From contig JAUWYA010000001.1 in NCBI GenBank assembly GCA_030616085.1, forward strand, positions 74,692 through 134,377: a DNA stretch of 59,686 nt, given 5' to 3'. The notes below the pieces were generated by a model. That model saw nothing but the letters and a program-made list of their open reading frames with translations, did not search any database and had not been told where the DNA came from. The position numbers and the translations under genes are program-made. This DNA comes from Candidatus Nealsonbacteria bacterium (GTDB lineage Bacteria > Patescibacteriota > Minisyncoccia > Minisyncoccales > GWA2-38-27). Shown in pieces: positions 2,594 to 59,378 of the stretch (position 1 is its first letter; each line of letters begins with the position of its first letter).

Positions 2594-3085
2594 ATGAATA
2601 TAAATGAAGCAATAGAATTTTTAGATAAACAAGTTCCAAATCCTTCAGAGGGTTTGCCAGATGAGGTGTTTTATTATATCAGCAGAACAACTCCGTTGGT
2701 AAATGTTGATTTACTGATAAAAGATGAAAAAGGCCGGACGCTTTTATCCTGGAGAGATGACCAATATACTGGGAAAGGATGGCATGTGCCTGGCGGGATT
2801 ATAAGATTTAAGGAAAAACTTGAAACAAGAATTCAAAAAGTGGCAAAAAATGAAATTGGCGCCGCAGTTAAATTCGACCCGGTTCCGATTGCTATTAATC
2901 AAATAATGTGCAGAAACAATACGAGAGGTCATTTTATATCAATATTATATAAATGTTTTCTTACGAATAAATTTATTCCTAAAAATAAAAATCTAACAAA
3001 CAAAGATCCAGGGTATCTTAAGTGGCATACTACTTGTCCTGACAATCTGTTGAAATTTCATGAGATTTACAGGAAGTTTCTATGA
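2594..3085 (+). CDS. Nudix-fold hydrolase, WcaH/Gmm-like (paralog of 1970-2482)
   Basis: GWHVPGGIIRFKEKLETRIQKVAKNEIG is a degenerate Nudix box with the same architecture as the divergent neighbour. Confidence 0.65.
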   Translation: MNINEAIEFLDKQVPNPSEGLPDEVFYYISRTTPLVNVDLLIKDEKGRTLLSWRDDQYTGKGWHVPGGIIRFKEKLETRIQKVAKNEIGAAVKFDPVPIAINQIMCRNNTRGHFISILYKCFLTNKFIPKNKNLTNKDPGYLKWHTTCPDNLLKFHEIYRKFL

Positions 3086-4878
3086 ATAAAATAAGAGTAG
3101 CCGATTATATTTTTAAATATTTAGCCGATTATGGAATTAAACATGTTTTTTTGGTAGTCGGCGGCGGCGCTATGCATTTGAACGATGCATTGAGAAAAGA
3201 GAAGCGGATTAAACATATCTGCACCCATCATGAGCAGGCGGCTGCAGTTGCAGCTGAGGGGTATGCCAGGACACAAGAGGGATTGGCAGTGGTTAGTGTA
3301 ACTTCCGGCCCTGGAGGAACCAATGCTTTAACAGGAGTTATTGGACAGTGGCTTGATTCTGTTCCAGTATTATACTTGTCTGGCCAAGTAAAATATGAAA
3401 CAACAATTGCGTCTGTTCCTGATAACAACCTACGTCAATTAGGCGATCAAGAGATTAATATAATTGATATTGTCAGGCCAGTGACTAAATACGCAAAGAT
3501 GATAACTGATCCAAAGACGATAAAGGTCGAATTAGACAGGGCTATTCATATTGCTACTTCAGGAAGGCCGGGTCCAGTATGGTTGGATATACCGTTGAAT
3601 GTTCAGGGGGCATTGATTGACGAGCAGAGTTTTCAAAACGAGAGTATAAATAACGTTTTGCCAGAGATAGAAGATAAGACTATTTCTGCAGTTATCAAAG
3701 AGCTGCAAAAAGCCAAGAGACCATTGTTAATCGCTGGTCATGGTATTAGAATTTCAAAAGCTAAAGAACAATTTCTGAAATTAGTTGACTTGTTGGACAT
3801 TCCAGTTGTAACAACCTTTAATGGTTTTGACTTAATTCCTTCCAAATCAGATAATTTTGTCGGCAGAATAGGAACATTGGGCAGCCGCGCAGGAAATTTC
3901 GCGCTGCAAAACGCGGATCTTGTTATTTGTCTTGGAACCAGAAATAATATCAGGCAGGTTAGCTATAATTGGCCTTCGTTTGCCAGGCATGCGAAAAAAA
4001 TTATTGTTGATATTGATGATGCTGAATTGCATAAGAAAACAGTAAAAGGCGATTTTTTGATTCGTTCTGATGCGAAAGTTTTTATAACTAAGTTGTTGGG
4101 AAAAATTTCTGATGGTTTTAAGATTGATAAAACATGGCTTGAATGGTGTTTAACGCGCAAGAAAAAATATCCTGTTGTTTTAGATAAATATAAAATTCCA
4201 AATGAACATTGTGTTCATCCTTACCATTTTATTGAAGAATTGACAGCCGTATTAGATGATAATGTTATTGTGGTTGCGGGAAATGGAACGGCATGCGTTG
4301 TTTTGTTTCAGGCCGGTGCTGTCAAAGCGGGACAGCGTATTTTTTGGAATTCAGGTTGCGCGGCAATGGGGTATGCTTTGCCTGCATCTATGGGCGCGGC
4401 TTTGGCAGGGAATCGGGACGTAATTTGTATTACAGGAGATGGTAGTATTCAGATGAATCTTCAGGAGCTGCAAACTATTAAGCACTATAATTTGCCTGTG
4501 AAAATATTTATTTTAAATAATCAGGGTTATCGCTCAATTGAGATGACGCAGACAAAATTTTTTAATGGTGAGTTTATTGGCTGCAATAAAGAATCGGGTA
4601 TTTCTTTCCCAGATTTTTCCAAACTTGCGGATTTATATGATTTGAAATATTACAGAATAAATTCAACCATCAAGATGCGAGAAGTAATTAAGAGAGCTTT
4701 ATCTTATAAAGGAGCGCTGATATGCGAAGTTGTTTTGAATAATCGCTATATCTTTGCTCCTAAGCTGTCATCAAAAAAAATGCCTGACGGACGCATAGTA
4801 TCCAAACCATTAGAAGATCTTTCTCCGTTTCTTGATCCGGATGAATTTAAAACCAATATGATAATTCCTTTGCTTTAA
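3082..4878 (+). CDS. thiamine-diphosphate-dependent enzyme, acetolactate-synthase-large-subunit fold, YerE-like candidate
   Basis: 598 aa with the full three-domain ALS-like layout: N-terminal Pyr domain (HEQAAAVAAEGYAR, TSGPGGTNA) and a C-terminal PP domain with the ThDP-binding motif GDGSIQMNLQEL...LNN. ATGA overlap with the upstream gene. Confidence 0.8.
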   Translation: MNKIRVADYIFKYLADYGIKHVFLVVGGGAMHLNDALRKEKRIKHICTHHEQAAAVAAEGYARTQEGLAVVSVTSGPGGTNALTGVIGQWLDSVPVLYLSGQVKYETTIASVPDNNLRQLGDQEINIIDIVRPVTKYAKMITDPKTIKVELDRAIHIATSGRPGPVWLDIPLNVQGALIDEQSFQNESINNVLPEIEDKTISAVIKELQKAKRPLLIAGHGIRISKAKEQFLKLVDLLDIPVVTTFNGFDLIPSKSDNFVGRIGTLGSRAGNFALQNADLVICLGTRNNIRQVSYNWPSFARHAKKIIVDIDDAELHKKTVKGDFLIRSDAKVFITKLLGKISDGFKIDKTWLEWCLTRKKKYPVVLDKYKIPNEHCVHPYHFIEELTAVLDDNVIVVAGNGTACVVLFQAGAVKAGQRIFWNSGCAAMGYALPASMGAALAGNRDVICITGDGSIQMNLQELQTIKHYNLPVKIFILNNQGYRSIEMTQTKFFNGEFIGCNKESGISFPDFSKLADLYDLKYYRINSTIKMREVIKRALSYKGALICEVVLNNRYIFAPKLSSKKMPDGRIVSKPLEDLSPFLDPDEFKTNMIIPLL

Positions 4879-4922
4879 TTTGAAAATTATGTTATTATTC
4901 AAAATAAAAAAGTTCTTTAAAA

Positions 4923-4930
4923 AGGAGGTG
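4923..4930 (+). promoter_or_regulatory. Shine-Dalgarno sequence for the HAD gene
   Basis: AGGAGGTG lies 6 nt upstream of the ATG at 4937. It is the strongest SD-like sequence in the window. Confidence 0.6.
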
Positions 4931-4936
4931 ATAAAA

Positions 4937-5701
4937 ATGATAAAAGGCATTGCTTTTGATTTAGACGGCACACTTTACTATGGCAATAAAGTTATAGAGG
5001 GCGCCTTAGATACGGTAAATACTTTGATAAATTTAAATTATCAGATACTTTACTTTACAAATAATTCCGGGAAGACGCAGCAGCAGATTATTGACAAATT
5101 AAAAGGCTTTGGTTTTCGAGCAAATATGCAGAATACATATTGCTGTTCATACGTTATTTGTTCCTACCTGATGGAAAAGAAAATTACGTCTGTTTGCTTA
5201 ATAGGCACTGATGATTTAAGGAGCGATTTAGAATCTCATAACATCAGAGTTGAGAATTCTTTGGCCGTATCTGCGGTGGTCGTGGCTTTTGATTCATCTT
5301 TAAGTTATGACAAGATAACAATGGCGCTGGAGGCGATAAATAATGGGGCTAAATTAATAGTCGCCAACACAGACCCTTCTTATCCCATAGAAAACAATAG
5401 AAGATTACCTGGTTGTGGAGCTATGGTTGGCGCAATTGTCGGCGCAACATGTCATACCCCTGATTTTATTGTCGGCAAACCAAACACATACATGCTTGAA
5501 TTGCTTTGTAAAGAGCATAATTTTTCTTCGAAAGAAATTTGTATAGTGGGAGACAGTCCTGAAAGTGATATTAAAATGGCAGATAATTTTCAATGTCAAA
5601 GCATACTTTTTGACTCCGAGGACGCTTTCCCGACATTTTCAGGCAATAAAGTAAAAAGCCTGCATGAAGTTATTTCATTAATCAATAAGAAAGGAGATTA
5701 A
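4937..5701 (+). CDS. HAD-IIA family phosphatase (NagD-like)
   Basis: Motif I is FDLDGTLY and the late motif is VGDSPESDI. Start placed at the ATG at 4937 behind the strong SD. The ORF-track start at 4880 is a TTG with a lysine-rich leader. Confidence 0.75.
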   Translation: MIKGIAFDLDGTLYYGNKVIEGALDTVNTLINLNYQILYFTNNSGKTQQQIIDKLKGFGFRANMQNTYCCSYVICSYLMEKKITSVCLIGTDDLRSDLESHNIRVENSLAVSAVVVAFDSSLSYDKITMALEAINNGAKLIVANTDPSYPIENNRRLPGCGAMVGAIVGATCHTPDFIVGKPNTYMLELLCKEHNFSSKEICIVGDSPESDIKMADNFQCQSILFDSEDAFPTFSGNKVKSLHEVISLINKKGD

Positions 5702-5705
5702 AAAA

Positions 5706-6491
5706 ATGAACGTACTTGAATACAAAATGGTGGATATACTTAAAGTGTTAAAGAATGAGTATGGTGTTTTTGAGATTAAAGCTGAATTTGAGGCCGAAGG
5801 GAGCCGGATGGAGGAAATGATGCGCCTTAAAGATGTCACCACTTTTGTGGGATTACCGATTATATTAAAGACCGGTGGCGTAGAGGCGGTCACAGATGTA
5901 TATAACGCACTGTCAATAGGCGTGAAAGGACTTATTGCTCCCATGGTTGAAACTCCGTTTGCCTTGTCAAAATTCCTGGCTCTCATAAAAAATATGATTG
6001 CCGAGGATAATAGGAAAGATATTGAATTCGCTTTTAATTTGGAAACTATAACAGCTTTTCAAAACATAGATAAGATGTTTGAACTACCCGATGTTCCAAT
6101 GTTAACCGGAGTAACTGTCGGAAGGGTTGACTTAACTGGGTCTATGGGCTTAGGAAGGGAAGCCATTAATACATCCAGCGAAGTGTACAGCATTTGCGAA
6201 AAGGTTATGTCAAAAGCTAAAAAAAGAGGGCTTAAGACAGGTTTGGGCGGAGGTATTTCAAAAGAGGCCATACCGATTATAACAAAATTGACTAAAAGCA
6301 AATTGCTTGATAAGTTTGAAACGCGCAAGGTCGTATTTCCGGCTGCTTCTTGTAAGTATGGAAACGCCGCGATATTAAAGGCGGTTGAATTTGAGCTTTT
6401 ATGGCTTAAGAGCAAGCGAAGGTATTACTCGCGTGTCAAAGTTGAGGATGAAAATAGAATAACAATGCTTGAGAAAAGACTTAAGCAATAA
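5706..6491 (+). CDS. HpcH/HpaI aldolase / citrate-lyase-beta family protein
   Basis: The LIAPMVETPFA motif and TIM-barrel-length protein (261 aa) are typical of the class II pyruvate aldolase / CitE-like superfamily. Confidence 0.6.
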   Translation: MNVLEYKMVDILKVLKNEYGVFEIKAEFEAEGSRMEEMMRLKDVTTFVGLPIILKTGGVEAVTDVYNALSIGVKGLIAPMVETPFALSKFLALIKNMIAEDNRKDIEFAFNLETITAFQNIDKMFELPDVPMLTGVTVGRVDLTGSMGLGREAINTSSEVYSICEKVMSKAKKRGLKTGLGGGISKEAIPIITKLTKSKLLDKFETRKVVFPAASCKYGNAAILKAVEFELLWLKSKRRYYSRVKVEDENRITMLEKRLKQ

Positions 6492-6496
6492 TTTTA

Positions 6497-6528
6497 AAAC
6501 CCCGAGATACAAAAGTACCTCGGGGTTT
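6497..6528 (+). terminator. stem-loop after the aldolase gene (weak intrinsic-terminator candidate)
   Basis: AAACCCCGAGATAC-AAAA-GTACCTCGGGGTTT, 13 of 14 positions paired. The T-run is only 3 nt and lies inside the stem. Confidence 0.4.
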
Positions 6529-6540
6529 CAATTCTATATT

Positions 6541-7695
6541 ATGAATAATAATTGCCATTTATGTAACAATAAATTATTTCCTGATCCAGTTCTACAATTA
6601 AAGGGGATGCCAAAAGCTGCTCAATATTATCCAGAAAAAAATGAGTTTGCAGAAGATATTGGTATACTTTTAACTATCTGGCAATGTTCAAGCTGTGGTT
6701 TGGTCCAGCATACTATGAGACCAGTGGAGTATTTTAAAGAGGTAATTACCGCTGCTTCATTATCAGAGAAATCCAGGTTGTCCAGATTGAATCAAATAAA
6801 AGAGTTTGTTAACAGGTTTGGATTACATGGCAAAAAGGTTTTAGATATTGGCAGCAATAAGGGTGATATGATAGATGTTTTGGAGGAGGCGGGTTTAATA
6901 GCGACAGGAATTGAGGCTTCACAAAAATCAGTAGAAATAGGAAAATCTTTAGGAAGAAAAATGATTAAAGGCTATATCGGGGATATAGATGAAATAGAAG
7001 GCGGTTTATTTGATGCATTTATTTCTTTAAATTACATTGAACATTTGCCTGAACCAGGTCGTATTATCAGAAACATATATAAAAATACTTTTGCTAATTC
7101 AATGGGATTTGTAACAGTTCCTAATTTAGAGTATTTATTAAAAACAAAATGTTTCTATGAATTTGTCGTTGACCACATTTCATATTTTACCAAAAAAACA
7201 CTGACATACGCTTTTGAGGCAAATGGTTTTGATGTGTTAGAATGTCAAACCATTAATGAAGAAAACGATATTGCAGCAATAGTAAGAAAGAAAGAGGCCC
7301 TAGATATTTCTGGACATTTCAATGAAGTTGAAGAACTTATTAAAAATTTACAACAAATTGTAGCTGACTACAAATCAAAGAATAAGAAAGTGGCGGTTTG
7401 GGGAGCAGGCCACAGAACATTGGCATTGTTAGCTTTAAGCAAAGCGAATAATATTGAATATATAATTGATTCCGCGAAGTTCAAGCAAGGAAAATACGCC
7501 CCTATCTTGCATTTAAATATAGTGTCTCCAGAGCATTTGAAGAAAAAAAAGGTTGATTTAGTAATAGTTATGGTGCCCGGACTTTATCCTAGCGAAGTGT
7601 TAAAAACGCTGGCACAGATGAATGTCGGCGTGGAAGTCGCAACGCTTTGCGAAAACAAAATTGAGTTTATCCCGTTAGAAAACTCTGCCCTTTAG
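6541..7695 (+). CDS. NDP-hexose C-methyltransferase-like protein (Zn-ribbon + class I SAM MTase + C-terminal C-methyltransferase domain; TylCIII-like)
   Basis: N-terminal CHLCNN...CSSCGLVQH zinc ribbon, SAM motif VLDIGSNKGD, and a C-terminal VAVWGAGHRTLALL Rossmann-like domain. Start set at MNNNCHLC (6541), downstream of the hairpin. Confidence 0.7.
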   Translation: MNNNCHLCNNKLFPDPVLQLKGMPKAAQYYPEKNEFAEDIGILLTIWQCSSCGLVQHTMRPVEYFKEVITAASLSEKSRLSRLNQIKEFVNRFGLHGKKVLDIGSNKGDMIDVLEEAGLIATGIEASQKSVEIGKSLGRKMIKGYIGDIDEIEGGLFDAFISLNYIEHLPEPGRIIRNIYKNTFANSMGFVTVPNLEYLLKTKCFYEFVVDHISYFTKKTLTYAFEANGFDVLECQTINEENDIAAIVRKKEALDISGHFNEVEELIKNLQQIVADYKSKNKKVAVWGAGHRTLALLALSKANNIEYIIDSAKFKQGKYAPILHLNIVSPEHLKKKKVDLVIVMVPGLYPSEVLKTLAQMNVGVEVATLCENKIEFIPLENSAL

Positions 7696-7733
7696 GGCGG
7701 TTGGGTTGAAAACCCCGCCTTTTCTAACGGGAT
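7669..7733. repeat. palindromic element, copy 1 (arms ATCCCGTTAGAAAA / TTTTCTAACGGGAT)
   Basis: Perfect 14-bp inverted arms at 7669-7682 and 7720-7733 enclose a 37-nt spacer that contains its own hairpin. The left arm encodes the last codons (IPLEN) of the C-methyltransferase. Confidence 0.8.
7694..7724 (+). terminator. intrinsic-terminator-like hairpin after the C-methyltransferase gene
   Basis: GGCGG..GGTT-GAA-AACC.CCGCC followed by TTTTC. It lies inside the spacer of palindromic element copy 1. Confidence 0.45.
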
Positions 7734-7754
7734 TTATTAAAAATTAATAATTCA

Positions 7755-7983
7755 GTCCGGTAGGATCCGAACTAGCATCAATTTAGCGGAGCGAATTTTA
7801 TTCAGATTCAAGGCGCGAGGAGTGAAGTGTGCCTTTAGGCACACGAGCGACGAGCAACAAAGAAACTGTATAAAATTCGCCCGCCCGCAGGGAAGGAAAG
7901 AATAGGTCAATTTCCTCGTCGCGCCTCGAACCTGACCTATTCTTTCGCTTCTAAAGTTGATGATAGTTTGGATCCTACCGGGC
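7755..7983. other. GC-rich, highly self-complementary intergenic element (candidate structured ncRNA or non-autonomous mobile element)
   Basis: My hand count gives 112 G+C in 229 nt (about 49%), against an AT-rich background. A 16-bp closing helix pairs 7757-7772 CCGGTAGGATCCGAAC with 7966-7981 GTTTGGATCCTACCGG, with one G:T position. Inner helices are 7791-7800/7871-7880 (10 bp), 7827-7833/7838-7844 (7 bp) and 7896-7909/7933-7946 (14 bp). Confidence 0.6.
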
Positions 7984-7990
7984 ACAAAAA

Positions 7991-9043
7991 ATGGAAAGAA
8001 CAAATAGAGAAAAAAATAATAGGGTGAAATTGCAGGAAAAAAAGCCGTTAGCGTATGCAAAAATAATTAAACACTCAGAAAAGATAAAAAATAAAGAATG
8101 CGTCGCTTTAATTCAACTGCAATATAGATATAACTGCAATTTTATGTGCAAGCATTGCGCCATTGAGAGATTCAAACAAAAAGATGGCAGGCTTTTAGCT
8201 ATTGCAGACGTTAAACGAATTGCAGATCAAGCCGATGCAATGGGCTTGGCAAGCATTTGTATTTCCGGGGGAGAACCTCTAATTTTTCCTGATATAAAGG
8301 ATGTTATTGACGCAATAGGTCCAAATAGATTTGTTATTAGTATGGATACAAATGGATGGCTTCTAACGGAAGAGAAAGTAAAATGGCTTGTCGAAAAAGG
8401 TGTAGATAGGGTTCATTTAAGTATTGATGGTCTTGAATTCAATCACGATGATTTTAGAGGAACGAAAGGGTCATGGAAAAGATCTATTGAGGCTTTAGAA
8501 CATTGTAAGAAACATAATCTTGGCGTTATTATCAACATTGTTGCCACAAAAAGTCTAATTTCATCAGGTGAATTGATTAAACAATTAGATTTTTTAGCTA
8601 AATATGGACAACATACAAGTATAATTTTTGCGAAAGCTACAGGAGCTTTTGAGCAGTATAAGGATGAAATATTGGATACAAAAGATATAAAATACATACA
8701 GACCCTGCATCAGCAATTAGGTGGAAAATATAATACTTCAACCCATTTATCTCCGAATTGTGGATATGAATTTGGTTGCATGTGTTTTAAAAGACATATG
8801 TCGATTACTGCTCATGGAGATGTGTTGCCCTGTCCCTGGATTCCAATAAGAATAGGTAATATCTTTGATGAGGATTTAGAAACCATAATAAAGCGCGGGT
8901 TGGGCATAAAGTGGTTTTCTTATGATTGTAAATTCAGTTGTCTGAGCGGCAACAGAGATATGTCATTCTATAAGAATATTATGCCCCAAATAGAACAATC
9001 AGATGTTTATCCTGTTGATTGGAAAAAGATTAACTGGTTTTAA
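7991..9043 (+). CDS. radical SAM protein with C-terminal Cys-rich SPASM/Twitch-like domain
   Basis: CNFMCKHC is the CX3CX2C motif. GGEPL is present. The C-terminal cysteines are CGYEFGCMCF...LPCPW...CKFSC. The start codon is uncertain because the leader before the Cys motif is long. Confidence 0.8.
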   Translation: MERTNREKNNRVKLQEKKPLAYAKIIKHSEKIKNKECVALIQLQYRYNCNFMCKHCAIERFKQKDGRLLAIADVKRIADQADAMGLASICISGGEPLIFPDIKDVIDAIGPNRFVISMDTNGWLLTEEKVKWLVEKGVDRVHLSIDGLEFNHDDFRGTKGSWKRSIEALEHCKKHNLGVIINIVATKSLISSGELIKQLDFLAKYGQHTSIIFAKATGAFEQYKDEILDTKDIKYIQTLHQQLGGKYNTSTHLSPNCGYEFGCMCFKRHMSITAHGDVLPCPWIPIRIGNIFDEDLETIIKRGLGIKWFSYDCKFSCLSGNRDMSFYKNIMPQIEQSDVYPVDWKKINWF

Positions 9044-9046
9044 TAT

Positions 9047-9973
9047 ATGAGTATTTTGATAACTGGCTCAACAGGCTTTGTAGGCCGCAATTTGGTGGAG
9101 TTATTTTCAAAAAACAAATACCCAATATTGGCTTTGTCAAAGAAAGAGCTGGATCTTACTAAATCAGATGATGTGGGGAAATATTTTGAAAATAACCATA
9201 TTGAAGCCATTGTGCATTGCGCAACGACATTGAGAGAGCCCATAGCTTATCCAGCGGATACATGTGAAAATAATTTGCGTATGTTCTTTAATATACAAAA
9301 GCATATGACGCCATCGATGAAAATGATAAATTTAGGCAGCGGGTCTGAATATGGAAGAAACTATTGGCGCAAAAAAATGCCTGAAGAATATTTTAATAAG
9401 CATATTCCACAAGATAGTCATAGTTATTCAAAATATTTGATTTCAAAGTATATTCAAGATATAAATCGTGAAAATTTGATTTGTCTAAGGATATTCGGCA
9501 TATTTGGGAAATATGAGGATTATCGCTATAAATTTATATCTAATGCGATAGTAAAAAACTTGCTCAATATGCCGATCGTGATAAACCAAAACGTTATTTA
9601 TGATTATTTATACATTACTGATTTCTTCAAAATCGTAGAATACTTTATAAATAATAAGACAAAAAATAGAATTTTTAATGTCACGCCGACAAAATCAATT
9701 GATTTACTGACAATCGCAAATATTATTAATAAACTAAGCGACAAAAAAAGCGAAATACAAGTGCTGAATCAAGGAATCGCAGTTGATTATTCCGGGGATA
9801 ACAAAAGGCTTCTTTCGGAAATCAAAGATTTCCAATTTATTGAATACGAGAAGGCGATAGCCGAATTATTCGCATATTATAAAGAAACAAAAGATACTTT
9901 GGACGTAGATGCTATTAAACAGGATATTTACTTAGATTATGCAAAAGAGCTTCGTAAGAAATATTTCATATAA
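9047..9973 (+). CDS. NAD(P)-dependent sugar epimerase/reductase (extended SDR)
   Basis: ILITGSTGFVGRNL Rossmann motif, GSGSEYG and YSKYLISK (YxxxK-type). 308 aa. Confidence 0.7.
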   Translation: MSILITGSTGFVGRNLVELFSKNKYPILALSKKELDLTKSDDVGKYFENNHIEAIVHCATTLREPIAYPADTCENNLRMFFNIQKHMTPSMKMINLGSGSEYGRNYWRKKMPEEYFNKHIPQDSHSYSKYLISKYIQDINRENLICLRIFGIFGKYEDYRYKFISNAIVKNLLNMPIVINQNVIYDYLYITDFFKIVEYFINNKTKNRIFNVTPTKSIDLLTIANIINKLSDKKSEIQVLNQGIAVDYSGDNKRLLSEIKDFQFIEYEKAIAELFAYYKETKDTLDVDAIKQDIYLDYAKELRKKYFI

Positions 9974-9978
9974 TTTAT

Positions 9979-11118
9979 ATGGTCCAAAAATGTATACTTT
10001 GCAATAATAAAAAATTTAAAACTATTATTAAAATTAATAATGCGCCTGTTTGTGTGGCGAGATTATTAGATAAGAATGGGATACAGAAAGATAAAAAAAT
10101 CTTGATAGAATTAATAAGTTGTACAAGATGTAAATTGTGCCAATTGAAAAGAGATAATTTTGTAGAACGTAATTTCTATGATAATTATCAAATGCTAATT
10201 TCGTGTTCTAAACAAATGCAGGATTATCAGAAACAACAATCTGAAGATTTTGTTAAGTATTTTAACCTAAAAGGGAAATCTGCCTTTGAAATAGGTTGTG
10301 GCGATGGTACGTTTGCCTCATTTTTGAATAAATACGGCTTAAAGACTATTGGAGTTGAGCCGTCAGAACCTTTTTATAATTTAGCTAAAAAGAAAATTAA
10401 AGTTCTCAATCAATATCTAAATAAAAAAACCTGTTTAGAGAAAAAACACTATGACGCTTTTGTTTCAACACAGGTATTTGAACATTTAAGTAATCCTAAT
10501 CAAGTTCTAAGGGATGCAAAATTATATTTAAAGCCAAATGGAGTTGGTTTAATCGAGGTTCCATCTTTTTTAACCGCTATAAAAGATAACCGATATTATG
10601 ATATTTTTCGCGACCATGTTGCCTATTATACAAAGTACACATTAGAATATTTACTAGCTAGGAATAACTTTCAAGTTATAAAGACATTTCACTCAGCAGA
10701 TAATGAATATTTGACGACTTATTTTAAGAGCAATAATTATCATACTGATGAATTAAAATTATTTTCAACCGGCTATATTAATTATAAAAAAGATATTAAA
10801 AAACTATTTAGTTCATATAAAAATAAGAAAGTTGCTGTTTGGGGAGCTGGAGGAAAAGGTATAGCTCTTTTGTCTACATGCGATATTTCTCCGAAAGATA
10901 TTCTATTTGTTATTGATTCGGATATCCATAAACAAGGTAAATATACAATGGGTAGTCATATTTTAATTAAATCTCCAAAAGAGATTAATTTTAAGAAATT
11001 AGATTTAATAGTAATTTCAGCTGTTATGTATCAAAAAGAAATCATCAAAGATCTTAAGAGTAAATATAATTATAAAAATAAAATAGCTCTTATATCGCCC
11101 AAGCCGCATATTATTTAA
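9979..11118 (+). CDS. NDP-hexose C-methyltransferase-like protein (second copy, same three-domain layout as 6541-7695)
   Basis: CILCNN...CTRCKLCQL zinc ribbon, SAM motif FEIGCGDG, and C-terminal VAVWGAGGKGIALL. Clear paralog of 6541-7695. Confidence 0.7.
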   Translation: MVQKCILCNNKKFKTIIKINNAPVCVARLLDKNGIQKDKKILIELISCTRCKLCQLKRDNFVERNFYDNYQMLISCSKQMQDYQKQQSEDFVKYFNLKGKSAFEIGCGDGTFASFLNKYGLKTIGVEPSEPFYNLAKKKIKVLNQYLNKKTCLEKKHYDAFVSTQVFEHLSNPNQVLRDAKLYLKPNGVGLIEVPSFLTAIKDNRYYDIFRDHVAYYTKYTLEYLLARNNFQVIKTFHSADNEYLTTYFKSNNYHTDELKLFSTGYINYKKDIKKLFSSYKNKKVAVWGAGGKGIALLSTCDISPKDILFVIDSDIHKQGKYTMGSHILIKSPKEINFKKLDLIVISAVMYQKEIIKDLKSKYNYKNKIALISPKPHII

Positions 11119-11133
11119 TTCTCAAATCCTGTT

Positions 11134-12423
11134 ATGGAAAACGAAAAACAACTTAGAAAAGAAATTTTAAATAAGGTTAAAAAATTCTATAAAGCTCAGA
11201 AAGAAGAGAAATTCATTCCGGGCGAAAGCCGGGTTAATTACGCTGGCAGAGTTTATGATGAAAAAGAAATAATGAATTTAGTTGATTCTTCTTTAGATTT
11301 CTGGCTGACTGCTAGCAGATATGCCAAACAGTTTGAAAATGACTTTGCCAAATTTTTAGGTTTAAAACACTGTCTTTTAACTAATTCTGGCTCTTCTGCT
11401 AATCTTTTAGCTGTTTCTGCTTTAAGATTAAAGCCAGGGGATGAAGTTATAACTACTGCCTCTGGTTTCCCTACTACTTTAAATCCTATTATCCAAAATA
11501 ATTTAATGCCGGTTTTTATTGATATTGATTTAGGAACTTATAATATTAAAACAGAAGAAATTGAAAAAGCCATCTCGCCAAAGACAAAAGCCATTTTTAT
11601 TGCTCATACTTTAGGTAATCCAGCCAAGCTAGATAAGATTTTAGCAATTGTTAAAAAATATAATTTATATTTTATAGAAGATAATTGTGATTCCTTGGGT
11701 TCAAAATATAAAGGCAGATATACTGGCAGTTTTGGACATATTTCTACTTGTAGTTTTTATCCAGCTCATCATATTACAATGGGAGAGGGGGGAGCAGTTT
11801 GTACTAATAATCCCTTGCTTAAAAAAAACATTGCCTCTTTTCGCGACTGGGGCCGAGACTGCTTGTGTGAGCCTGGCTGTGATAATACTTGCGGCAAAAG
11901 ATTTTCTCAAAAGCTTGGCAAACTGCCTTTTGGCTATGACCATAAATATACTTATTCTCATATTGGTTATAATTTAAAAATTACTGATATGCAGGCCGCT
12001 ATTGGCTTAGCTCAGCTTGAAAAACTACCTCTTTTTATTAAAAAAAGAAAAGAGAATTTCAAAGAAATATATAAATTTCTAAAACCATATGAAAATTATT
12101 TTGTTTTGCCAAAACCTGAAAAAGATTCTGAGCCTTCTTGGTTCGGATTTCCAATTTTAATAAAACCAGCCGCGTCTTTTAAAAGAAAAGAAATTGTTGA
12201 TTATTTAGAAAATAATAATATCGCTACCAGAATGCTTTTCGGGGGAAATTTATTAAAACAGCCGGCTTATGAAAATATAAAACATCGTGTTTGCGGGACT
12301 CTAAAAAATACTGATTTGGCAATGAATAATCTTTTCTGGCTTGGCGTATATCCCGGAATTACCAAAGAGAAATTGAATTATATGATTAATACTATTAATA
12401 GATTTTTAAAAAACCATGAATAA
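11134..12423 (+). CDS. rfbH: CDP-4-keto-6-deoxy-D-glucose 3-dehydratase (E1, RfbH/DdhC family; DegT/DnrJ/EryC1 fold)
   Basis: FYPAHHITMGEGG has His where aminotransferases of this fold carry the Schiff-base Lys. The Cys cluster RDWGRDCLCEPGCDNTCGKRF is characteristic of the Fe-S containing E1 dehydratases. 429 aa. Confidence 0.8.
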   Translation: MENEKQLRKEILNKVKKFYKAQKEEKFIPGESRVNYAGRVYDEKEIMNLVDSSLDFWLTASRYAKQFENDFAKFLGLKHCLLTNSGSSANLLAVSALRLKPGDEVITTASGFPTTLNPIIQNNLMPVFIDIDLGTYNIKTEEIEKAISPKTKAIFIAHTLGNPAKLDKILAIVKKYNLYFIEDNCDSLGSKYKGRYTGSFGHISTCSFYPAHHITMGEGGAVCTNNPLLKKNIASFRDWGRDCLCEPGCDNTCGKRFSQKLGKLPFGYDHKYTYSHIGYNLKITDMQAAIGLAQLEKLPLFIKKRKENFKEIYKFLKPYENYFVLPKPEKDSEPSWFGFPILIKPAASFKRKEIVDYLENNNIATRMLFGGNLLKQPAYENIKHRVCGTLKNTDLAMNNLFWLGVYPGITKEKLNYMINTINRFLKNHE

Positions 12424-13555
12424 TAAGCCCCTATTAAGTATTGCTATTCTAACCTGGAACAGAGCTCCCTATTTAGAAAACCTTTTAAATAATATCTTGC
12501 CTCAAGCAAAAGAATTGAAAGAAAAGGTTGAAATATGTATTTCTAATAATGGCTCAACAGATAATACCCGCGAAGTTGTAATGGAATTTAAAGAAAAATA
12601 TCCAGGCCTGATAAAATATAATGAAAATAAAGAAAACTTAGGTTTTGATAGAAACTTGCTTAAAGTAATGGAGATGTCTATCGGAAGTTTTATCTGGACT
12701 TTCGGAGATGATGATGATATTGTAGAGAATGGTTTAAAAGAGGTTGTTGAGTTTATCAAAAAAATCCCTAAAGAAAATGTAGGACTAATTACTCTAAAAG
12801 GAGAAGCGTATTTTATTGATAAGCAAACCAGGAAGAAAATAATCTATTACAATAGTTTAGATAAAAAGCATTCAGAGATATATAAAATAGATAAAAAGGA
12901 TATTTTTTTTAGATTTGTGGAGTATATGTCTATATCAACACTGCTTTTTAATAATAAAACAGTTAAAAAGATATTTAGAGAAGATAAAGATATAATAGAA
13001 AAAGAGATTGGAGACGTGAGTATTCATGCCTTAATATATAGTTTAATGTTTTTAAAATATCCTCATATTAAGGGAATTACATTTAATAAAAAAATAGTTT
13101 ATTCCGAGTTGGCTTATCATAAACCTTTTATTGAAGATAGACTTAGAGCAAATTATGAAATGCCAAAGAAATTATATCACGTGATGATATCTAACAAGTA
13201 TATGGATGATTATTATGTTCCCTTGTTTGTTAAAAAAGATAAGGAATTAAGGCGAGCATTTGTTATAGATATGATGGTATTAAGAGCTTTTGATTCTTTT
13301 AATTATGTTTCTTATTCTGATTGTTTGAGATTATTTTTTCAATATGCAGTATTTATAGATGCTTTGTTATTTTCTTTGGTTTTTTCAATTCTTTTTCTAA
13401 TCCCTGGCAAGGTTTTAAGATTTATGTATAAAGTTTTATTAATGATTAGATGCGGCAAAAAGTGGCGAAAACAATGGCAGTTTATAACTAGTTACAACTC
13501 TCAGCAACTTGGGGGCGCCAGAAGGTCAGCAGATACAGATGATATAGCTAACTAA
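12416..13555 (+). CDS. family 2 glycosyltransferase with C-terminal membrane segment
   Basis: LSIAILTWNRAPYLENLL...NNGSTDNT and FGDDDDIV (DxD). Hydrophobic C-terminal region. Confidence 0.75.
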   Translation: MNNKPLLSIAILTWNRAPYLENLLNNILPQAKELKEKVEICISNNGSTDNTREVVMEFKEKYPGLIKYNENKENLGFDRNLLKVMEMSIGSFIWTFGDDDDIVENGLKEVVEFIKKIPKENVGLITLKGEAYFIDKQTRKKIIYYNSLDKKHSEIYKIDKKDIFFRFVEYMSISTLLFNNKTVKKIFREDKDIIEKEIGDVSIHALIYSLMFLKYPHIKGITFNKKIVYSELAYHKPFIEDRLRANYEMPKKLYHVMISNKYMDDYYVPLFVKKDKELRRAFVIDMMVLRAFDSFNYVSYSDCLRLFFQYAVFIDALLFSLVFSILFLIPGKVLRFMYKVLLMIRCGKKWRKQWQFITSYNSQQLGGARRSADTDDIAN

Positions 13556-22254: not shown

Positions 22255-22284
22255 TATAAAAATAAATTAATAAAAAATATGGAA

Positions 22285-22364
22285 TCCCGTTAGAAATTCT
22301 GTATTAACAGGTTTTTAATCGGGGTATCATATCCAAATAGAATTTATGAAAATTTCTAACGGGG
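22285..22364. repeat. palindromic element, copy 2 (arms TCCCGTTAGAAATT / AATTTCTAACGGGG)
   Basis: 13 perfect bp plus one T:G position. Arms at 22285-22298 and 22351-22364 with a 52-nt spacer. The right arm overlaps codons 2-7 of the annotated NeuB-like ORF. Confidence 0.75.
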
Positions 22365-23245
22365 TGGAACAAAAAAGTAAAAAAATAGTAAAAATTGGAA
22401 ATAAATTAATAGGCGATGAGCAACCAACTTTTATAACCGCAGAAATTGGAATTAATCATAATGGAGATATTGATATTGCCAAGAAATTAATAGATATGGC
22501 GGTTTTTGCCGGTTGTGATGCGGTCAAATTTCAGAAAAGGACTATTGAACTTGTCTATACTCCTGAAGAATTAGCCAGACCAAGAGAAAATCCTTTTGGA
22601 CCGACTAACGGTGACTTGAAAAAAGGACTGGAATTTGGCGAAAAAGAATATCAAGAGATAGATAGATATTGTAAAGAGAAAGGTATAATCTGGTTTGCTT
22701 CTCCCTGGGATATGAAAAGTGTTGACTTCTTGGAAAAATTTGATGTTCCTTGTTATAAAATAGCCTCTGCTTGTTTAACAGATGATGAATTAGTGAAACA
22801 GATTAAATCTAAAGGCAAGCCAATTATTCTATCTACTGGTATGAGCACTATAGAACAAATTAAGCATGTGGTTAATGTGTTGGGTGAAGAAAATTTAATT
22901 TTGCTTCATTGTACCTCAACCTATCCTTCAAAACTTGAGGAATTAAATTTGAATGTTGTTCCTTGGCTAAGAAAAACCTTTAATTACCCGATTGGTTATA
23001 GTGGTCACGGAATCGGTGTTGTTGGATCTGTGATAGCTGTAACCTTGGGAGCTTGTGTTGTGGAAAGGCATATTACTTTAGATAGAGCAATGTGGGGAAG
23101 CGATCAGGCAGCAAGTTTAGAACCTAATGGTTTGAATAGGGCAGTAAGGGATATTAGAAATCTGCCCAAGTGTTTAGGAGACGGCCAAAAGAGAGTTTAT
23201 GAAAGCGAAAAACCAATACTTGAGAAATTAAGAAAAGTTAAATAA
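22346..23245 (+). CDS. NeuB-family sialic-acid-type synthase (PEP-dependent ulosonic acid synthase)
   Basis: PTFITAEIGINHNGDIDIAKKLIDMA..GCDAVKFQ is the NeuB/PseI/LegI N-terminal signature. At 299 aa it is shorter than typical NeuB, with a reduced SAF-like tail. The start is uncertain: ATG at 22346 or in-frame GTG at 22364. Confidence 0.75.
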   Translation: MKISNGVEQKSKKIVKIGNKLIGDEQPTFITAEIGINHNGDIDIAKKLIDMAVFAGCDAVKFQKRTIELVYTPEELARPRENPFGPTNGDLKKGLEFGEKEYQEIDRYCKEKGIIWFASPWDMKSVDFLEKFDVPCYKIASACLTDDELVKQIKSKGKPIILSTGMSTIEQIKHVVNVLGEENLILLHCTSTYPSKLEELNLNVVPWLRKTFNYPIGYSGHGIGVVGSVIAVTLGACVVERHITLDRAMWGSDQAASLEPNGLNRAVRDIRNLPKCLGDGQKRVYESEKPILEKLRKVK

Positions 23246-32684: not shown

Positions 32685-34081
32685 AATTCTTAATACCCAT
32701 TATTTTAGGTCTGACAATTATTGGTTTTTTTGACAAAACCTTAGCCATAGGCTTTATATTTATTGGTTTTCTGTGTCTAATTACCTTTTTAGTATTTTCT
32801 AAGACCAGAATAAAAGGCAAAGCATTGGTTTTACTTATTTTAATTACCCTTTTGATTCATATTGGAGCGGTCTTATTTGTCCATTATGCTAATTTTCAGC
32901 CCTTTAGCGGCGGATCCGGCGATTATACTGTTTATCAGGAGCGAGCCCAAGAAGTAGCCCAGAGAGTTCGTCAAGGAAATTTTTCTTTAGAAGGAGTGAC
33001 AGGTCATCGTTATCCGGTGATTATAGGATATATATATGTCCTTACAACACCGGAAATGCTTATTGGTCAGTTATTTAGCGCTTGGTTAGCAGTTATTTCT
33101 GTTCTTTTAACTTATTTAATAGTTCTTGAAATCAACGGTTCAAAAAAACAGGCCTTTTTAATTGGTTTAATTGTTTGTCTTTATCCAAGTTATCTTTTTT
33201 ATGGAAGTTTATTACTTAAAGATACTTTAGTTATCCCTTTGACTTTATTTGGACTTTTATTAACCTTAAAACTAATTAAGAATTTTTCCTGGAGAAATTT
33301 TCTATTTTTTTGTATTATTTTAGGAGCTGTAACCCATTTTCGCTTTTATATCGGTTACGCGCTTTTATTCACTTTTATTCCTTGCTGGCTCCTGGTTTCT
33401 AAATTAAATTTAAAGAAAAAATTTATCTATGGAATAATAATTATCATTGTTTTAGGGTTTGTACCTCAATTTTTAGGTCATGGTTATTATGGGTTCAAGA
33501 GCATCAAAGGATTTCTAAATCCAAAGACCATTGTTCATTATCGAGAGATAGTTTATGCTCCTGTGTCTTCTTCAATTGTTGAAGCTCCAGAGATATCAGA
33601 TCCAGAGACATCAGTCCCAGAGACATCAGTCCCAGAGACATCAGGCCTAGAGAGGGTTTTTAAAAAAATAGTTGTAAAAATATTTCCTAATATTGAAAAA
33701 GCGCCAAGCGTGAATAGGTCATCAATAGAAGTAAAAACAGAGATTGAGAAGCCTTCTAATTTTTTAATAAATTACTCAAAATCTTTTATTTATGTATTAT
33801 TAGGACCTCTACCTTGGCACATACAAAATTATCGGCAACTGTTTGTTTTATTGGAAACCATTCCTTGGTATTTTTTACTATTTTTTGTAATAAAAGGAGC
33901 TTTTATAACCTTAAAACAAAAACGTATTGCTTTACCTTTATTGGTTTTTAGTATAATATCATTAGGCGTTCTCGCCCTTTTTATAAGTAATTTTGGAATT
34001 ATTACCAGGATTCGTATGCCTAGTTTTATAGCTCTTTTATGTTTAATCCCACTGGGTTTTAAAAAATTTTTAAAGATATGA
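32681..34081 (+). CDS. polytopic membrane protein (GT-C glycosyltransferase / polymerase-like)
   Basis: At least 10 hydrophobic segments, with a hydrophilic loop carrying a pentapeptide repeat. Start set at the ATG at 32681 (ATGA overlap). The track start at 32672 is a TTG. Confidence 0.55.
   Translation: MKFLIPIILGLTIIGFFDKTLAIGFIFIGFLCLITFLVFSKTRIKGKALVLLILITLLIHIGAVLFVHYANFQPFSGGSGDYTVYQERAQEVAQRVRQGNFSLEGVTGHRYPVIIGYIYVLTTPEMLIGQLFSAWLAVISVLLTYLIVLEINGSKKQAFLIGLIVCLYPSYLFYGSLLLKDTLVIPLTLFGLLLTLKLIKNFSWRNFLFFCIILGAVTHFRFYIGYALLFTFIPCWLLVSKLNLKKKFIYGIIIIIVLGFVPQFLGHGYYGFKSIKGFLNPKTIVHYREIVYAPVSSSIVEAPEISDPETSVPETSVPETSGLERVFKKIVVKIFPNIEKAPSVNRSSIEVKTEIEKPSNFLINYSKSFIYVLLGPLPWHIQNYRQLFVLLETIPWYFLLFFVIKGAFITLKQKRIALPLLVFSIISLGVLALFISNFGIITRIRMPSFIALLCLIPLGFKKFLKI
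33587..33655 (+). repeat. 15-bp tandem repeat, 4 copies plus a partial one, in-frame
   Basis: CCAGAGATATCAGAT / CCAGAGACATCAGTC / CCAGAGACATCAGTC / CCAGAGACATCAGGC / CTAGAGAGG encodes PEISD-PETSV-PETSV-PETSG-LER. Confidence 0.9.
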
Positions 34082-58463: not shown

Positions 58464-59378
58464 ATGAAAAAATATTTAATCACTGGTGGAGCCGGCTTTA
58501 TTGGTTCCCATTTAGTAGATAAATTAATAGGGCAGGGACATAAAGTGATTGTTATTGATAATCTTTCTACTGGCAAGAAAGAAAATTTAAACTCAAAAGC
58601 AGATTTTCACAATCTTAATATCTGCGATTTTGGGGAAATTAAATCTCTTTTTCAAAATATTGATTATGTTTTTCATCTAGCTGCTATTCCTAGGGTACCT
58701 ATTTCAATTGAAGACCCTGTTTCTACTTCAAAAGCAAATATTTTGGGAACAATTAATGTTTTTAAAGCGGGGATTGATAATAAAGTAAAAAGAATTGTTT
58801 TTGCTTCGTCGTCTTCTGTTTATGGAAATCAAGAAAAACTGCCTTTGCAAGAGGATATGAGGCCAAGTCCTCTTAGTCCTTATGCTTTGCAAAAATTAAC
58901 CAGTGAAAGGTTTGCTAAATTATTTGTTCAGCTTTACAAAGTTCCAATAATTTGTTTAAGATATTTCAATGTTTATGGGCCAAGAATTGATTTTGATTCT
59001 GATTATAGTTTAGTTCTTGGCAAATTTTTGAAGTTGAGAACTCAAAATAAACCTTTAACAATTTTTGGTGATGGAGAACAAACCAGAGGCTTTTGCTATA
59101 TTGATGATGTAATACAAGCTAATATTAAAGCTATGCAGAGCAATAATTTAAAAGGCAAAGAAGTAATTAATATTGGCAATAATAAATCCTATTCTATAAA
59201 TTATTTAGCAGAAATAATTGGAGGCAAGGTTGAGTTTTTACCCACTAGATTAGGTGATATTCGTCATACACAAGCAGATATTAGCTTAGCTAAAAAACTT
59301 ATTGATTGGGAGCCAAAAATAGATTTTCGGCAAGGCGTAGAAAAAACAAAACAATGGTTTAAAGAAAATGGAAAATAA
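58464..59378 (+). CDS. NAD-dependent nucleotide-sugar epimerase (GalE/WbpP-like extended SDR)
   Basis: ITGGAGFIGSHLVDKL, SSSSVYG, YALQK (YxxxK). Confidence 0.8.
   Translation: MKKYLITGGAGFIGSHLVDKLIGQGHKVIVIDNLSTGKKENLNSKADFHNLNICDFGEIKSLFQNIDYVFHLAAIPRVPISIEDPVSTSKANILGTINVFKAGIDNKVKRIVFASSSSVYGNQEKLPLQEDMRPSPLSPYALQKLTSERFAKLFVQLYKVPIICLRYFNVYGPRIDFDSDYSLVLGKFLKLRTQNKPLTIFGDGEQTRGFCYIDDVIQANIKAMQSNNLKGKEVINIGNNKSYSINYLAEIIGGKVEFLPTRLGDIRHTQADISLAKKLIDWEPKIDFRQGVEKTKQWFKENGK

Follow-up and report, generated by a model that had tools for sequence, protein, structure and literature searches.

A structured palindromic element between two operon genes and its relatives in ribosomal RNA, tRNA-adjacent and phage loci: a candidate family of mobile, intervening-sequence-like insertions

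Introduction

The window considered here (the whole stretch of DNA that was analysed, 59.7 kb in length) is occupied by one long, co-directional gene cluster of glycan type, in which genes for a TPP enzyme, a HAD hydrolase, an aldolase, a C-methyltransferase, a radical SAM/SPASM protein, an epimerase, an aminotransferase, glycosyltransferases and others follow one another in the same direction with a median gap of 3 nt. The largest gap between consecutive co-directional genes, at 295 nt, lies immediately upstream of the radical SAM/SPASM gene (positions 7991-9043, + strand) and contains a GC-rich, repeatedly self-complementary stretch of 229 nt (7755-7983, + strand). What kind of element is this, and what brought it to a junction of two genes in so tightly packed a cluster? 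A first-pass annotation of the DNA had put forward three candidates: a cis-regulatory leader of the radical SAM operon, a free-standing structured non-coding RNA, or a non-autonomous mobile element, with a leaning towards the last of these in the form of a ‘MITE’.

An extremely stable fold in the largest gap of the cluster

The G+C content of the element is 48.9%, against a mean of 31.8% for the window (sd 5.1%, calculated across 229-nt windows), in agreement with an earlier hand count of about 49% in a background of about 30%; only 0.03% of 229-nt windows are as rich in G+C. The + strand of the element folds with an MFE of -116.9 kcal/mol (z = -10.6, with 0 of 200 shuffled sequences equally stable) and the - strand with an MFE of -107.8 kcal/mol (z = -9.9). 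Across approximately 400 sliding 229-nt windows the mean MFE is -40.9 (sd 8.5), so placed that the element lies at -9.6 sd after correction for G+C and is the most stable 229-nt stretch of the window; a coding stretch of equal G+C (around position 3155) reaches just -65.7. The GC-rich stretch is a real and extremely stable fold, present in a single copy in the 59.7-kb window.

The fold is closed by a long helix, P1, whose 5' arm (7755-7784) and 3' arm (7954-7983) form 29 bp that are interrupted by one G.A mismatch and include three G.U pairs; the closing helix of 16 bp that had been recognised on first inspection is part of this longer duplex. Between the 3' arm and the radical SAM ATG at 7991 lie 7 nt, and the element begins 21 nt past a neighbouring palindrome (distances that had been counted as 8 and 22 nt, respectively). 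Within P1, a GCGG strand (7786-7789) and the 5' strand of a second helix, P2 (7791-7809), are predicted to pair with 7862-7884, which supplies the 3' side of both P2 and the GCGG/CCGC helix, and these pairings covary in the family described below. P2 is tipped by a hairpin, H (GTGTGCC-TTTA-GGCACAC, 7827-7844), that has a different sequence in each lineage. The hairpin is flanked by two strands of what is termed here the core: the purine-rich and nearly invariant strand a (CAAGGCGCGAGGAG, 7809-7822), which forms the 5' side of the P2 internal loop, and strand b (7845-7862), in which GACGAGCAAC (7849-7858) is invariant in nine of nine aligned copies. There follow a small, family-conserved hairpin, h (CCC-GCA-GGG, 7884-7892), which overlaps the adjacent helices in the window copy, and a P3 arm (7891-7952, formed by pairing of 7891-7914 with 7928-7952), whose loop holds core strand d (CCTCGTCGCGCCTCG, 7914-7928), complementary to strand a.

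Several of these features had been noticed in the first-pass annotation, and recur in the predicted fold: a 10-bp helix (GCGAATTTTA/TAAAATTCGC), the GTGTGCC hairpin and a 14-bp hairpin. The loop pairing that it had proposed as a pseudoknot or alternative fold is also borne out, in that CCTCGTCGCGCC is complementary to 7811-7822 within a 28-nt inverted repeat of 79% identity, and this complementarity between loop and internal loop proved to be conserved across the family. Its weak hint of a + strand RNA is matched by a bias that is also weak: the strong helices contain four G.U pairs and no A.C mismatches on that strand (approximately p = 0.06, one-sided).

The failure of the first-pass annotation to match the element to a familiar RNA was repeated in database searches. 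Rfam 15, whose families include group I/II introns, ribozymes, 6S, HEARO and retron msr, gave no match at the gathering threshold for the whole window, and chance-level matches (E > 0.1) were the sole result when the element region and two full-length relatives were searched at E <= 10. No sigma-70-like promoter or + strand terminator was found inside 7755-7983. A tRNA or tRNA-derived gene was rejected on the negative result of ARAGORN, for the element and for the family members alike, and 6S RNA on the lack of an Rfam match and on its absence in relatives. Two further repeats of the window are recorded as separate observations: a 15-nt tandem repeat (CCAGAGACATCAGTC, about four copies, 33587-33646) within an ORF, and a 155-nt direct repeat (255-409 and 58475-58629, 73% identity) near the window ends, which probably reflects paralogous genes.

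Two insertions at one gene junction

The closest radical SAM homologues available (at loci L001, L002 and L003) are 85-86% identical to that of the window, and the named relatives, which belong to Elusimicrobiota or Omnitrophota MAGs, are 78-80% identical. The distance from the methyltransferase stop codon to the radical SAM start codon is 4-6 nt at these three loci and 26 nt at a fourth (L011), all four having the same gene order as the window, and at a fifth (L012) the same junction is occupied by an unrelated 116-nt spacer (503-618). The element is absent at five of five of these loci. If the element and the neighbouring palindrome (best fit, 7665-7731) are both deleted from the window, what is left aligns colinearly with L011, and the same double deletion gives the methyltransferase a C-terminus that resembles those of its counterparts at the related loci. 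The two inserts are separated by 21 nt of AT-rich DNA with homology to the native spacer, and are therefore two separate insertions.

The empty site in L011 reads AATTCA^TATAAAAAT, versus AATTCA-element-ACAAAAA in the window, and no target-site duplication was found by this comparison or at any other copy of the family (eight insertion sites in total). The element inserted into the short, AT-rich methyltransferase/radical SAM spacer in the lineage of the window; given the L012 spacer, that junction seems prone to acquiring inserts.

The palindrome upstream (7665-7733, with arms at 7669-7682 and 7720-7733) lies outside the element and is a separate insertion, with TTTAT on either side. It belongs to a second palindromic family, with copies at 7665-7733 and 22284-22365 of the window and at 5139-5205 of L002, in which the outer arms (CCCGTTAGAAA...TTTCTAACGGG) are conserved and the interiors are variable; the copy at 7669-7733 folds with z = -5.9. 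The C-methyltransferase stop codon (7693-7695) now lies inside this palindrome, with a resulting change to the C-terminus of the protein.

Three recognised types of structured or mobile element were considered and set aside. An integron attC site has its core sites in the reverse order (checked by eye on the neighbouring palindrome). A retron would be accompanied by a reverse transcriptase, and no RT domain was found among the nine window genes flanking the element (3082-13555) or in the gene tables of the family loci. Finally, paired subterminal hairpins and a common target motif, as expected of an IS200/IS605 PATE, are both lacking.

Recovery of relatives through spurious reading frames

Relatives of the element were reached by way of an accident of its coding potential. 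One minus-strand frame is open across its whole length and can be translated into a 77-residue ‘peptide’; a word-indexed protein search with this peptide returned nothing useful, and an exhaustive phmmer search against a library of 1.84 billion representative proteins returned six short proteins with 46-58% identity to it. A profile built from these six reached 26 protein clusters at E <= 10. Because the peptide patterns of these clusters switch among the reading frames of the element, as expected of homology at the level of nucleotides, the matching proteins are spurious ORFs over homologous DNA. Copies of the DNA were then taken from the contigs that carry the spurious ORFs and were confirmed by nhmmer and by a covariance model of the core without P1; the window copy itself is matched by the family profile at E = 2e-62 and by the covariance model at 134.5 bits. 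The copies lie at unrelated loci on other contigs, and the element belongs to a dispersed, multi-copy family.

Approximately 25 ‘hypothetical protein’ clusters in public metagenome gene calls (P0121-P0148) are spurious ORFs across the element family, in several frames. A coding remnant was rejected for the element, which has stops in five frames and an open frame matched by spurious homologues only, and an assembly or vector artefact was rejected on the presence of homologues in independent samples.

Other routes led nowhere. Exact and degenerate scans for the terminal repeats in genome, metagenome and viral contigs gave only matches that BLAST identified as chance ones in coding DNA. Chance matches were also the sole result of blastn of the element against plasmids and phages and of two more pattern scans of viral contigs (negative by nhmmer). 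A partner IS with the same ends was found neither in the window nor in the genome, metagenome and viral scans. Literature searches on the sequence motifs retrieved primers only, and no paper describing the family was found.

Genomic settings of the family

The copies recovered occupy a wide range of settings (orientations are given relative to the window + strand). Ten of the loci, L019 to L028, are a single locus seen in ten samples, amid small hypothetical genes. The copy of L029/L030 interrupts a 23S rRNA gene in the sense orientation, approximately 500 nt from the 5' end of the gene, where 288 nt stand in place of 19 nt of the Rfam LSU model; when matched to E. coli, the insertion site is at, or just 5' of, the hairpin of nt 375-399, and the rRNA stem GUCCUG/CAGGAC runs on into P1 of the element. 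In L031/L032, a tRNA-Glu gene is followed after 10 nt by a full copy that is in sense with its neighbours; a second copy within 10 kb has the opposite orientation and is cut by the contig end, and 6 nt separate its 5' end from the start codon of a divergent gene for a Zn-ribbon (RNHCP) protein. The L033 copy (sense, full-length, 9953-10223) begins at the upstream stop codon and ends 6 nt before the next ATG, and the L034 copy (antisense) spans the interval from the rpsI stop (+3 nt) to the next ATG (+5 nt). Two further copies, both sense and with 62% G+C, are found on a 16-kb tailed-phage contig (L035/L036) that carries terminase, portal, protease, major head and baseplate genes; each starts 2-3 nt past a stop codon, and the 3' arm of P1 of each includes GGAGG and the ATG of the next gene.

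Of the eight copies whose context is clear, six run in the same sense as the transcription around them, and several abut a start codon, a hint of a cis function. The genes downstream are unrelated to one another (radical SAM, a nuclease-like protein, a baseplate protein, a cation ATPase and 23S rRNA itself), the hosts range from 31 to 62% G+C, and no consistent tie to one gene family or pathway was found among the family loci. From a LAGLIDADG-intron-rich 23S gene, DUF5667 proteins and small genes, the bacterial contigs with copies look like those of CPR/Patescibacteria. A leader dedicated to the radical SAM operon, as the first-pass annotation had entertained, is excluded, because the element is absent from the orthologous operons and has unrelated neighbours elsewhere; a riboswitch specific to that operon is not supported.

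The rRNA genes that host a family copy show other peculiarities. In the CPR-like contig L029 (6475-10639, - strand), two LAGLIDADG ORFs and three tRNA genes (8237-8507) fall within the 23S rRNA match, which suggests that this 23S gene is intron-laden and may be split by a tRNA-containing spacer. In L030 (~511-576, - strand), a second, unrelated insertion of ~66 nt is present in the same 23S gene, at Rfam LSU position 312.

Fold and invariant core

Members of the family measure ~230-290 nt (~262-272 nt when full-length), and each of them, folded singly, takes on a Y shape. Across seven lineages, P1 (27-31 bp), P2 (16-20 bp), H (6-9 bp), h (3 bp), P3 (15-20 bp) and a further hairpin, H2 (5-9 bp, weaker in phage), are all kept, in sequences that are unrelated. 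The purine-rich internal loop of P2, made of strands a and b, surrounds the variable hairpin H; in full-length members, P3 is built in the same way, with the complementary and pyrimidine-rich strands c and d around the second variable hairpin, H2. The family alignment shows that strand c and H2 are absent from the window copy, which is thus a shortened derivative of the family.

Covariation, proposed by the first-pass annotation as a test should homologues exist, is heavy. For four copies, RNAalifold finds compensatory change in 23 of 92 pairs, and in a hand-trimmed structure double changes are seen in 22 of 80 pairs with 96.8% of cells paired, against 33-47% in slid controls and with none of 500 shuffles matching the observed value. 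An alignment of seven copies fitted to the model, which is biased to the structure by construction, has double changes in 38 of 55 pairs and 95.7% of cells paired (slid controls, 34-47%; 0 of 500 shuffles). The proposal of a structured non-coding RNA was therefore right in part, because compensatory change of this kind is characteristic of an RNA or single-strand fold under selection.

The core behaves in the opposite manner to the helices around it. In nine aligned copies its strands are invariant or nearly so, with strand a reading C.AG.CG..AGGA, strand b GACGAGCAAC and strand d TCG..G.GCCT.G. The a:d and b:c pairings are 92% paired and include five double changes (0 of 500 shuffles), the single changes giving G.U pairs; the competing c:d pairing is compatible with the sequences and is without covariation. 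Since a:d and b:c cross P2 and P3, the core corresponds either to a double pseudoknot or to an alternative, rod-like fold. The rod, when forced, costs 1-28 kcal/mol (median ~10), and an alternative fold with a:d and b:c lies 1-13 kcal/mol above the MFE in most members. The element also has a quasi two-fold symmetry, strand a resembling the reverse complement of d and strand b that of c, with the consequence that the covariance model also matches the opposite strand. Folding energy does not consistently favour one strand across the family, and on the + strand of the window copy and of L032 there are more G.U pairs than A.C mismatches.

The arms of P1 are not conserved across the family. The window copy has P1 arms with no relation to those in L029, L034 and the phage copies, and the motif GGAT.CGAAC is common to one subgroup only; copies in one genome have the same P1 sequence. 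As a side observation, the P1 arms of the CPR-type copies contain GGAT(T/C)CGAAC and its complement GGTTCG(A/C)ATCC, which resemble the tRNA T-loop consensus (window, 7763-7772 and 7966-7975; L031, 8657-8667 and 8895-8905; and the P1 arms of L033).

Interpretation and rival explanations

The element is best read as a mobile module and not as a dedicated regulator of the radical SAM operon, because the same family is found between other genes, in 23S rRNA and in phage. The reading preferred here, to which a probability of roughly 0.55 is attached, is that the window copy is one representative of an uncatalogued family of structured, non-coding, mobile elements that resemble intervening sequences (IVSs), and that it is co-transcribed with the operon. 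A mobile element whose propagation or tolerance depends on a folded single strand would fit the polymorphism of the insertion, the several copies at unrelated sites in one genome, the occurrence of both orientations, the break of an assembly at a copy and the presence of copies in phage. Set against mobility are the single copy in the window and the failure to find a target-site duplication, conserved termini, a transposase or another associated gene.

Since the element has sense orientation in a tight co-directional cluster and lacks promoter and terminator signals of its own, it is expected to form part of the operon mRNA, in which it would fold into its Y shape. The near-perfect 29-bp duplex of P1 is probably a substrate of RNase III. 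By analogy with the intervening sequences of 23S rRNA and with Correia elements, a cut there would release the element from the transcript, or split the transcript, and such processing would make the element tolerable between cistrons, in rRNA and in phage operons. An uncut P1 would bury positions -8 to -37 of the radical SAM gene, with lower translation and loss of coupling to the upstream gene as the predicted outcome. Cleavage in the window copy would free an A-rich radical SAM leader that otherwise offers 7 unpaired nt before the AUG, and in the phage copies it would unmask a Shine-Dalgarno sequence together with the AUG. The invariant core most likely serves the element's own propagation or processing, and not the radical SAM operon.

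An invariant core within covarying helices, kept in hosts of 31-62% G+C, is also what is expected of a functional RNA of benefit to its host. In this reading the element would be a cis-acting RNA with a core that acts as a ribozyme or as a sensor of a ligand or protein and that, by determining whether P1 is opened or cleaved, sets the translation of the gene immediately downstream. The placement of sense copies speaks for it, with the 3' arm of P1 ending 6-7 nt before the next start codon in the window and L033 and enclosing GGAGG and the next ATG in both phage copies, as do the a:d/b:c alternative fold (1-13 kcal/mol above the MFE in most members) and the excess of G.U over A.C on the + strand of the window copy and L032. 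However, orthologous operons do without the element, the genes downstream of the copies have nothing in common, the copies of L034 and the second copy of L031 are antisense to their neighbours, a P1 of 27-31 bp is far too stable for a reversible switch, and the window copy has lost strand c and H2; a host-serving role is accordingly judged unlikely. A classical MITE, that is, a deletion derivative of a DDE-type IS whose terminal repeats are recognised in trans and whose fold is a by-product of those repeats, would account for the polymorphic insertion, the several copies per genome (with one contig breaking at a copy), the two orientations and the P1 sequence common to the copies of one genome, and the element does have terminal inverted repeats (28-30 bp; 28-nt arms 89% complementary, extended to 29 bp). 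The broader claim of the first-pass annotation, that of a non-autonomous mobile element, is supported by the absence of the insertion in syntenic relatives and by the dispersed family; its leaning towards a MITE is not. The termini differ wholly between lineages while the interior is invariant, eight of eight insertion sites lack a target-site duplication, the terminal-repeat scans of genome, metagenome and viral contigs produced chance matches and no partner IS, and the internal helices covary in a way that a by-product fold would not need. On these grounds a classical MITE is regarded as highly improbable.

The conservation pattern (an invariant, possibly pseudoknotted core with variable peripheral helices) is like that of a ribozyme, the rRNA, tRNA-adjacent and phage-operon sites are typical habitats of introns, and insertion occurs without duplication. 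All of this would suit a self-mobile, intron-like or ribozyme-like RNA capable of self-excision and of a reverse reaction or homing. Such an RNA, or alternatively a stand-alone small RNA gene, is nevertheless thought very unlikely: the element resembles no group I or group II intron and no Rfam ribozyme, the start codon inside the phage copies means that precise excision would destroy the start of the gene, antisense copies exist, and a separate small RNA would have to do without a detectable promoter or terminator. A bolder version, quite unlikely in its turn, is that of a new self-propagating structured RNA or single-stranded nucleic acid with a double-pseudoknot core (a:d and b:c) that is catalytic or recruits a protein, and that excises from any transcript. 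If this were true, self-excision from rRNA, tRNA-linked, operon and late phage mRNA transcripts would permit harmless colonisation of compact CPR-like genomes and of phages.

The preferred reading, of mobile, IVS-like insertions, is of interest for several reasons. Compact CPR and phage genomes have almost no room for selfish DNA, yet this element is found in them at gene junctions, next to tRNA and within 23S rRNA. The combination of invariant complementary loops with freely covarying helices is unusual in a repeat element, and makes the family a good candidate for self-processing, RNase III action or protein binding. For annotators, the family explains why certain spurious ‘hypothetical proteins’ turn up among metagenome gene calls.

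Comparison with known systems

Among the closest counterparts of the element are the IVSs of 23S rRNA, which RNase III cuts out and whose flanks are not rejoined (Tsurumaki et al. 2024, PMC11270868; general knowledge). Insertions are carried by 82% of CPR 23S genes; many of these inserts lack ORFs, are not introns, have not been characterised and are presumed to be IVSs of the RNase III type (Tsurumaki et al. 2024, PMC11270868). The L029/L030 copy would be an insert of this sort. The element resembles IVSs in its lack of ORFs, in a length within 100-300 nt, in the long helix formed by its ends (27-31 bp for P1 of the family) and in its sporadic distribution, and the L029/L030 copy itself lies on the sense strand inside a 23S rRNA gene. 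The differences are those of location: the window copy is found between protein-coding genes, as most copies are found outside rRNA, and the L029/L030 site, at or next to the hairpin of E. coli nt 375-399, is not one of the classical sites. The latter are in helices 9, 25 and 45 of 23S rRNA. No invariant core is known to be common to IVSs, nor are they known from mRNA operons or phages.

Small palindromic MITEs that are co-transcribed with their host genes are familiar from the intergenic parts of operons, where the Correia elements of Neisseria and the ERIC/IRU elements of enterobacteria form long hairpins; RNase III cleaves Correia RNA, which alters the stability of the mRNA on either side. 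The present element is similarly small, palindromic, non-coding and intergenic within operons. However, Correia and ERIC elements keep their terminal repeats and overall sequence and make TA-like duplications, whereas this family has variable termini, an invariant core, covarying helices and no duplication. The palindromic elements of Rickettsia offer a parallel of another kind, being selfish inhabitants of reduced genomes that are tolerated in RNA genes, in coding regions and by gene ends; they typically lie in-frame inside proteins, occupy other hosts, and have no sequence similarity to the element, as judged by negative Rfam and BLAST results only.

REPINs are doublets of REP units mobilised by RAYT transposases (review context PMC3733652; general knowledge). 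As inverted doublets of a hairpin unit that can fold as two hairpins or one long hairpin, and that leave no target duplication, they recall the quasi two-fold symmetry of the element. In contrast, REP units are 20-40 nt long, bear GTAG/CGTC tags and occur in tens to hundreds of copies, whereas the units of the element are ~110 nt long with other motifs, and the gene tables of all loci show no RAYT gene nearby.

Taken together, these comparisons place the family among small palindromic mobile or IVS-like elements, with a minority chance that it represents a class of self-processing mobile RNA. The novelty lies in a defined family, with an invariant core of complementary loops, that joins an insert in 23S rRNA to intercistronic and phage copies. 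It provides a searchable, sequence-defined family for a part of the ‘uncharacterised ORF-less insertions’ in CPR rRNA genes (PMC11270868), and suggests that the intervening sequences of rRNA and the palindromic elements of intergenic regions can be one and the same mobile entity.
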